From sequence record PQ666539: 64,000 bases of DNA. One strand, 5' to 3'. The position numbers and the translations under genes were made by a program. This document shows positions 10,798 through 12,363 of the stretch, in pieces; position 1 is the stretch's first letter, and every line of letters starts with the position of its first letter. The stretch comes from Shigella phage sb1. The notes under the pieces are model-generated. The model searched no databases. It saw only the letters and a list, made by a program, of their open reading frames with translations, and was not told the DNA's origin.

Positions 10798-12363
10798 ATG
10801 ACTATCAAAACTAAAGCTGAACTTTTGAACAAATGGAAGCCATTACTGGAAGGTGAAGGTTTACCGGAAATTGCTAATAGCAAACAAGCGATTATCGCTA
10901 AAATCTTTGAAAACCAGGAAAAAGATTTCCAGACAGCTCCAGAGTACAAAGACGAAAAAATCGCTCAGGCGTTCGGTTCTTTCTTAACAGAAGCTGAAAT
11001 CGGTGGTGACCACGGTTACAACGCTACTAACATTGCTGCTGGTCAGACTTCTGGCGCAGTAACTCAGATTGGCCCAGCTGTTATGGGTATGGTACGTCGT
11101 GCTATTCCTAACCTGATTGCTTTCGATATTTGTGGTGTTCATCCGATGAACAGCCCGACCGGTCAGGTATTCGCACTGCGTGCAGTATATGGTAAAGACC
11201 CAATCGCTGCTGATGCTAAAGAAGCATTCCACCCAATGTATGGTCCAGATGCAATGTTCTCTGGTCAGGGTGCTGCTAAGAAATTCCCTGCTTTAACTGC
11301 TGGCGCACATACTAATGTAGGTGACATCTATACTTATTTCTTCCAGGAAACTGGTACTGTATATCTGCAAGCTTCCTCTGTAGTAACAATTAGTTCAAGT
11401 GCTGATGATGCAGCTAAATTAGATGCTGAAATTAAGAAACAAATGGAAGCTTGCGCATTGGTAGAAATCGCTGAAGTTATGGCTACTTCTATCGCTGAAC
11501 TTCAGGAAGGTTTCAATGGTTCTACCGATAATCCATGGAATGAAATGGGCTTCCGTATCGATAAACAAGTTATCGAAGCTAAATCTCGTCAGCTGAAAGC
11601 TGCTTACTCTATCGAATAAGCACAAGACCTCCGCGCTGTTCACGGTATGGATGCTGATGCTGAACTGTCTGGTATTCTGGCTACCGAAATCATGTTGGAA
11701 ATCAACAGTGAAGTTGTTGATTGGATTAACTACTCAGCTCAGGTTGGTAAATCTGGTATGACCCTGACTCCGGGTTCTAAAGCTGGTGTGTTTGACTTCC
11801 AGGACCCGATTGATATCCGTGGTGCTCGTTGGGCCGGTGAGAGCTTTAAAGCCCTTCTGTTCCAGATTGATAAAGAAGCAGCCGAAATCGCTCGTCAGAC
11901 CGGTCGTGGTGCTGTTAACTTCATTATCGCTTCCCGTAACTTAGTTAACGTTCTGGCTTCAGTTGATACCGGCATTTCTTATGCTGCACAGGGTCTGGCT
12001 ACCGGCTTTAACACTGATACTACCAAGTCAGTATTTGCTGGTGTTCTGGGTAGTAAATACCGCGTATATATCGACCAGTATGCTAAACAGGATTATTTCA
12101 CTGTAGGTTATAAAGGTCCGAACGAAATGGATGCTGGTATTTACTACGCTCCATATGTAGCTCTGACTCCGCTGCGTGGTTCCGATCCGAAGAACTTCCA
12201 ACCGGTAATGGGATTCAAAACTCGTTACGGTATCGGTATCAACCCATTTGCAGAATCCGCTGCTCAGGCTCCGGATTCTCGCATCCAGAGCGGTATGCCT
12301 TCTATTCTGAATAGCCTTGGTAAAAACGCTTACTTCCGACGTGTATATGTTAAAGGTATCTAA
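10798..12363 (+). CDS. 23: Major capsid protein gp23, interrupted by in-frame TAA at 11617-11619
   Basis: Two same-frame pieces (273 and 238 aa); whole span 521 aa as T4 gp23; sequence recognised across the stop (...AAYSIE stop AQDLRAVHGMDADAE...). Confidence 0.95.

Follow-up and report, generated by a model that had tools for sequence, protein, structure and literature searches.

The classical amber mutants of T4 gene 23, which were used to establish the colinearity of gene and protein, have otherwise wild-type genomes and are grown on suppressor hosts. Each carries a single lesion, in which a one-base change converts a sense codon to a stop codon and an N-terminal fragment of the major capsid protein results. 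Two substitution signatures of template damage are also relevant here. Insertion of A opposite abasic sites produces G>T together with A>T changes. The combination of G:C>T:A and A:T>C:G changes is the signature of 8-oxoguanine, which has been described as a library artefact consisting of G>T/C>A changes that appear as low-frequency read errors in a CCG context (Costello et al. 2013, PMC3616734).

The DNA analyzed here, a stretch of 64,000 nucleotides that we refer to as the window, comes from Shigella phage sb1 (PQ666539). The record belongs to a batch of four phages from Kolkata: ADG1 (PQ666539), AKR2 (PQ666540), CRD3 (PQ666541), and TMC4 (PQ666542) (PMC11993411). For this batch, DNA was extracted with CTAB, libraries were prepared with a Twist library kit that included enzymatic fragmentation and PCR, sequencing was performed on a NovaSeq 6000, and the SKESA assembler was picked by N50; read depth is unreported (PMC11993411). 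ADG1 has the lowest G+C content in the batch (35.16%, compared to 35.35 to 35.52%) and 285 predicted proteins, compared to 254 to 255 in two clean siblings (PMC11993411). In GenBank, the relatives of sb1 from Kolkata lake water are listed as sb2, sb3, and sb4 (PQ666540-42).

The window is a Tequatrovirus (T4-like) segment that extends from gene 14 to gene 37 and is collinear with many isolates, with a best overall identity of approximately 97%. Like the classical T4 mutants, it has a one-base sense-to-stop change in gene 23 that would give an N-terminal fragment. Unlike those mutants, which have single lesions, it has 32 further premature stops and approximately 250 unselected transversions. 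We conclude that the TAA codon within gene 23 is very probably a consensus-level sequencing or assembly error rather than a feature of any viable phage.

Gene 23 and its in-frame ochre codon

The original prediction placed an ochre codon in the middle of gene 23, and we found it there, in frame, at codon 274 of 521, in the context tct atc gaa TAA gca caa gac (TAA = 11617-11619). When the two ORF halves were joined through the stop, the resulting protein matched T4 gp23 from end to end (residues 1 to 521 of both; phmmer E=0, with PDB 6uzc and others; 7vs5 and 5vf3 are further T4 gp23 entries), in keeping with the total of 521 aa that had been given for it. In this alignment, Leu274 of T4 gp23, which lies in the motif SIELAQDL, is replaced by TAA. 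The statement that T4 has Leu here is correct, and the TTA codon named with it was found in all five relatives compared at first and then in all 14 of 14. Because T is present at position 11618 in 14 of 14 relatives, the lesion in gene 23 is a single T>A change. The order gp22, gp23, gp24 is kept (9970-10776, 10798-12360, and 12447-13727, respectively, by tblastn with pSs-1 proteins); by homology and synteny this is a T4-type gene 23, and its reading frame is interrupted. An in-frame stop within a gene so conserved is not a chance ORF boundary. If the TAA codon were real, gp23 would stop after residue 273, and capsid formation would be impossible.

The description of the two halves as otherwise intact is only roughly right. 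They align with T4 gp23 over its full length, but they contain eight missense changes that are unique to the window and affect residues invariant in 12 to 14 relatives: Q115H, G219C, G227V, R304S, G373V, V382L, G419S, and A493D. Seven of these eight changes are G:C>T:A, and G419S is G>A. Gene 23 also includes a patch (11817-11913) with approximately 15 changes that are unique in comparison with 13 to 14 relatives. Most of these changes either are synonymous or occur as pairs in a single codon, such as TCC>AGC at Ser349, GTT>GCC (V362A), and GAA>GCT (E372A). This patch looks like natural recombination from an unsampled T-even lineage, separate from the layer of substitutions described below.

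We examined the distribution of the TTA and TAA alleles in a collection of 50,697 phage records, which includes sb2, sb3, and sb4 (PQ666540-42) and is without PQ666539. Of the 50,697 records, 365 contain the 41-nt context with TTA (313 at ≥99% identity), and none contains it with TAA. Similarly, a 23-mer around the codon was present with TTA in 74 IMG/VR contigs, and the TAA version had no match in IMG/VR, JGI metagenomes, or GTDB genomes. The 74 IMG/VR loci come mostly from distant T4-like phages that match over a short conserved stretch of approximately 120 to 180 nt at the codon only. As a gene 23 panel, these loci demonstrate conservation of the motif, but they are useless for site-by-site polarization, and we set them aside. 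In public gene calls, there is no record of the exact N-terminal gp23 fragment; the exact gp24 product of the window has no record there either.

Premature stops and unselected substitutions across the window

We mapped 84 query proteins from pSs-1 (83 annotated CDSs plus gp29) onto the window. Nearly every one had one full-length, frame-consistent match, and no frameshifted genes were found among the 84 proteins mapped. The gene 23 stop had been said to sit alongside many other stops, and this is the case: the window contains 33 premature in-frame stops (25 TAA, 5 TGA, and 3 TAG) in 24 genes (Table 1). At least 13 of these genes are essential in T4: 16, 17 (two stops), 18, 22 (two), 23, 51, 27 (two), 29, 48, 32, 34 (four), 35, and 36. 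The residues lost are mainly Glu (GAA or GAG to TAA or TAG) and Gly (GGA to TGA), followed by Ser and Tyr, by G>T or C>A changes. The sole nonsense change outside the G:C>T:A class is the T>A at position 11618 in gene 23. Because the gene 23 stop is one among 33 random-looking premature stops, we interpret it as a sequence error rather than the mark of a biological mutant.

Table 1. Coordinates of gene 23, its fragments, and the premature stop codons in the window
Feature	Position	Strand	Remarks
Gene 23, major capsid protein	10798..12363	+	521 codons plus own TAA terminator; broken at codon 274
In-frame TAA in gene 23	11617..11619	+	Leu274 TTA>TAA, T>A at 11618
N-terminal gp23 fragment ORF, 273 aa	10798..11619	+	Product of the stop
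C-terminal gp23 ORF, 238 aa, from internal Met284	11647..12363	+	Results from the interruption; not a gene of its own
gp16 (terminase small subunit), TAA	1858..1860	+	GAA>TAA
gp17 (terminase large subunit), TGA	2975..2977	+	GGA>TGA
gp17, TAA	3461..3463	+	GAA>TAA
gp18 (tail sheath), TAA	4125..4127	+	GAA>TAA; identical in sb2 (PQ666540)
gp22 (scaffold), TAA	10042..10044	+	TCA>TAA
gp22, TAA	10312..10314	+	GAA>TAA
DUF2774 protein, TGA near C-terminus	15056..15058	-	Ambiguous; may be natural end variation
uvsW.1, TAA	19075..19077	+	GAA>TAA
uvsY, TAA	20141..20143	-	GAA>TAA
gp51, TAA	21609..21611	+	GAA>TAA
gp27, TGA	22634..22636	+	GGA>TGA
gp27, TAA	23075..23077	+	GAA>TAA
gp29, TGA	23897..23899	+	GGA>TGA
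gp48, TAA	25684..25686	+	TAC>TAA
Hypothetical gene (pSs-1 gp208 homologue), TAA	27586..27588	-	TCA>TAA
alt paralogue, TAG	29449..29451	-	GAG>TAG
Hypothetical gene, TAA	35336..35338	-	TAC>TAA
Hypothetical gene, TAA	39687..39689	-	GAA>TAA
Rz-like spanin gene, TAA	43017..43019	-	GAA>TAA
alc, TAG	43196..43198	-	GAG>TAG
alc, TAG	43382..43384	-	GAG>TAG
rnlA (gp63), TAA	44238..44240	-	GAA>TAA
rnlA (gp63), TGA	44391..44393	-	GGA>TGA
nrdA, two adjacent TAA	48397..48402	-	GAA GAA > TAA TAA
gp32 (ssDNA-binding protein), TAA	53210..53212	-	GAA>TAA
gp34, TAA	56717..56719	+	TCA>TAA
gp34, TAA	56786..56788	+	GAA>TAA
gp34, TAA	57647..57649	+	GAA>TAA
gp34, TAA	59156..59158	+	GAA>TAA
gp35, TAA	60109..60111	+	GAA>TAA
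gp36, TAA	61230..61232	+	TCA>TAA

By chance alone, the hit rate that we observed would produce a few close pairs like the adjacent stops in nrdA. The window contains two tandem alt-like ADP-ribosyltransferase paralogues on the minus strand (27928-29982 and 29989-32040) that share approximately 41% identity; pSs-1 has a pair of this kind as well. One of the two in the window carries a premature TAG. The td and nrdB genes of T4 contain introns. In the window, nrdB (45280-46455) and td (49332-50189), both on the minus strand, are each a single uninterrupted match to the pSs-1 protein, and Rfam found no group I intron in the window. On the basis of these matches and the Rfam result, this phage is without the td and nrdB introns of T4.

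We then considered private changes, defined as positions where one genome alone differs in a whole-window alignment with pSs-1, YwIITB1, and sb2. The window has 296 private G:C>T:A changes, compared to 28 in pSs-1, 67 in YwIITB1, and 54 in sb2. By codon position, these changes number 110, 99, and 72 at the first, second, and third positions, respectively. Of these, 219 are missense, 30 are nonsense, and 32 are synonymous, compared to 222.7, 32.6, and 25.6 under a neutral expectation in which each coding G or C is given an equal chance of being hit (chi-square p=0.40). The private transitions of the window have a different distribution, with 376 of 495 at third positions and 394 of 495 synonymous. 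Given that the transversions are neutral and the transitions are filtered by selection, which is typical of natural divergence, the window is best read as a natural genome overlaid by unselected substitutions. The pattern is that of a damage-type artefact, with one substitution class in excess over relatives and purifying selection absent.

On the plus strand, G>T and C>A make up equal shares of the G:C>T:A changes, which occur along the whole window and affect approximately 1.3% of G:C pairs; no flanking-base preference was found for them. The G+C content of the window is 0.26 to 0.43 points lower than that of the same region in relatives. Neighboring G:C>T:A events ≤50 nt apart have the same strand orientation in 44 of 72 cases, compared to 35.8 by chance (P ~0.04), a weak signal that would agree with strand-specific damage to individual templates. 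The density of G:C>T:A changes is approximately 22 per 4 kb in the second half of the window and approximately 14 in the first, and the density of this noise may track local coverage. Two proteins in the window, the 205-aa hypothetical protein encoded between gp18 and gp19 (5763-6377) and denA (44842-45249), are 100% identical to those of pSs-1, even though noise is present in other parts of the window.

Because the gene 23 change falls outside the main class, we looked for a minor A:T>T:A component in the first 25 kb of the window with a seven-genome panel. There, the private A:T>T:A changes of the window include nine missense and one nonsense, compared to one to four non-synonymous changes of this class in YwIITB1, ECp13, sb2, pSs-1, and sb3. 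Missense changes in the window also outnumber those in relatives for G:C>A:T (16 compared to 3 to 6) and A:T>C:G (8 compared to 0 to 3); no A:T>G:C excess was found in these 25 kb with the same panel. A random A:T>T:A change in these genes has a probability of 0.084 of being nonsense and 0.71 of being missense, meaning that approximately 10% of non-synonymous changes are nonsense, and therefore one stop is expected from the minor component. Other isolated, radical A:T>T:A changes occur in conserved genes that are otherwise quiet (for example, N>I in gp17 at 2421 and K>I in gp26 at 21242). The T>A in gene 23 is tied to the noise only via this small minor component of approximately 10 events per 25 kb, and the main class is G:C>T:A.

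Sibling records and the source of the substitutions

The damage is not confined to one record. In the GenBank annotation of sb2, the sheath gene is split at exactly the coordinates that apply in the window (4125-4127), and many genes are split in sb4. Within the 25 kb that correspond to positions 1 to 25000 of the window, sb4 contains 14 nonsense codons that are private to it, among them K>* and L>* that arose by A:T>T:A, and its private changes include 48 G:C>T:A, 43 A:T>T:A, and 21 A:T>C:G. Six damaging G:C>T:A changes are common to the window and sb2 alone: R>S, E>* (gp18, 4125), W>L, A>S, D>E, and H>N. Four more G:C>T:A changes are common to the window and sb4 alone: the missense changes D>Y, L>F, and D>Y and a fourth change that is non-coding. 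In comparison, the transversions that the window has in common with the unrelated YwIITB1 are nearly all synonymous third-position changes.

Thus, sb2 and sb4 resemble the window in genus, in the kind of split genes, in having private changes rich in transversions, and in some identical damaging changes; they differ from it in their natural backbone (approximately 96.3 to 96.6% identity). In addition, A:T>T:A is as frequent as G:C>T:A in sb4, unlike in the window. Because identical deleterious changes occur on different backbones, they point not to inheritance but to cross-talk between the libraries of one batch; contamination during sequencing of the batch would also fit. Consensus errors are present in several deposited Tequatrovirus records. 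In Ec_YwIITB1 (PQ356294), gene 23 is annotated as two pieces, with a 4-base length difference.

The explanation that we favor is that the window represents a natural Tequatrovirus segment, approximately 97% identical to known isolates, overlaid with random single-base substitutions that would never have been exposed to selection. This noise layer consists mainly of G:C>T:A changes, with smaller non-synonymous excesses of A:T>T:A, G:C>A:T, and A:T>C:G, and the T>A at position 11618 would be an instance of the minor A:T>T:A component that happened to fall on the second position of a TTA Leu codon. The source of the noise is probably damage to template bases, in the form of 8-oxoguanine or of abasic sites opposite which A is inserted, or else a related error of library preparation or sequencing. 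These errors could enter a consensus only where very few independent molecules support a position. This would require very low library complexity or coverage, given that errors of this kind would normally be outvoted at ordinary coverage.

The A:T>T:A class, to which the gene 23 change belongs, fits A-insertion opposite an abasic site better than it fits 8-oxoguanine. Depurination with A-insertion covers both G>T and A>T and fits sb4, but it predicts far more A:T>T:A changes than are present in the window. The 8-oxoguanine artefacts described previously (PMC3616734) share with the window a dominance of G:C>T:A and a smaller A:T>C:G excess, but the changes in the window are at the consensus level and without context. 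We therefore rejected a pure 8-oxoguanine artefact with CCG context, for which there is no context enrichment and which leaves the T>A unexplained. Miscalls in two-color chemistry produce transversions only, and G:C>C:G changes should accompany T>A. Single-channel miscalls of this type on the NovaSeq were rejected as the sole cause, since G:C>C:G is rare (2 in sb4, compared to 43 A:T>T:A). Neither the 8-oxoguanine signature nor the signature of A-insertion at abasic sites fully fits both the window and sb4.

Alternative explanations and consequences for Tequatrovirus records

The first alternative to a consensus error is that the ochre codon is a real conditional-lethal mutation in a phage maintained on a suppressor host; the original prediction noted a resemblance to classical nonsense mutants of gene 23. 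One base does turn the sense codon TTA into TAA, and since this is the sole stop outside the main G:C>T:A class, a separate origin is possible in principle. However, the lesion is not an isolated one in a functional genome. The 32 other stops are of all three kinds and fall in 23 other genes, at least 12 of them essential; because premature stops of all three kinds are present in many essential genes, no single suppressor host could rescue the phage. At invariant residues, gene 23 itself has the seven missense changes of the G:C>T:A class that are unique to the window, there is an excess of non-synonymous A:T>T:A changes, and the TAA allele is missing from IMG/VR, JGI metagenomes, GTDB genomes, and the 50,697 phage records. 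Furthermore, the phages of this batch were isolated on wild Shigella flexneri, not on suppressor strains. Given the other stops, the approximately 250 unselected transversions, and the damaged sibling records, the resemblance is unsupported, and we consider a true ochre mutant very unlikely.

A second alternative is that the window records a real, hypermutated, non-viable genome, which would have acquired G>T damage in vivo, been complemented by co-infection, and been read as a consensus of close to one molecule. The spectrum matches the one left by oxidation or depurination of guanine, and the strand-orientation clustering within 50 nt (44 of 72, compared to 35.8; P ~0.04) is as expected from damage to single strands. 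Under this explanation, the gene 23 ochre codon would be a real lesion in that molecule, with a host process, or massive oxidation or depurination of guanines inside the particle, as possible causes. Against it, a single-genome bottleneck would be needed to fix 33 lethal stops, and such a genome could not plaque. Moreover, the strand clustering is weak, and identical damaging changes occur in the separately deposited sb2 and sb4 records on other backbones. We regard a hypermutated genome as highly improbable.

Substitutions simulated in silico would account for G:C>T:A changes that are context-free, evenly spread, and neutral. A simulation would not reproduce the ten noise-like G:C>T:A changes that the window has in common with the sb2 and sb4 GenBank records, however, and sb2 and sb4 independently bear the same type of damage, which makes simulation extremely improbable. 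T-even phages have tRNA genes in another genome region, outside the window, and the many in-frame stops at conserved sense positions could in principle be decoded by stop-codon reassignment, programmed read-through, or a phage suppressor tRNA. This explanation can be dismissed with near certainty given that the stops are mixed (25 TAA, 5 TGA, and 3 TAG) and replace five amino acids (E, G, S, Y, and L), that the same codons still terminate genes (53 TAA, 21 TGA, and 4 TAG, including the TAA at the end of gene 23), that relatives approximately 97% identical have sense codons at the stop positions, that the frequency of the stops equals the one expected from neutral G:C>T:A hits, and that no tRNA genes or Rfam elements were found within the 64-kb window.

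A consensus-level error, the explanation that we prefer, is a finding about data quality rather than biology: in a T4-like phage sequence of the kind that is deposited in databases, approximately 1.3% of G:C pairs are erroneous and there are dozens of false stops. These false stops fragment essential genes, including those for the capsid, the terminase, the sheath, gp32, and the tail fibers, and they could pass for nonsense mutants, pseudogenes, or recoding. The errors that are common to sibling GenBank records are of possible concern to the curators of those records. Records of this type inflate gene counts and yield spurious families of "truncated" proteins.
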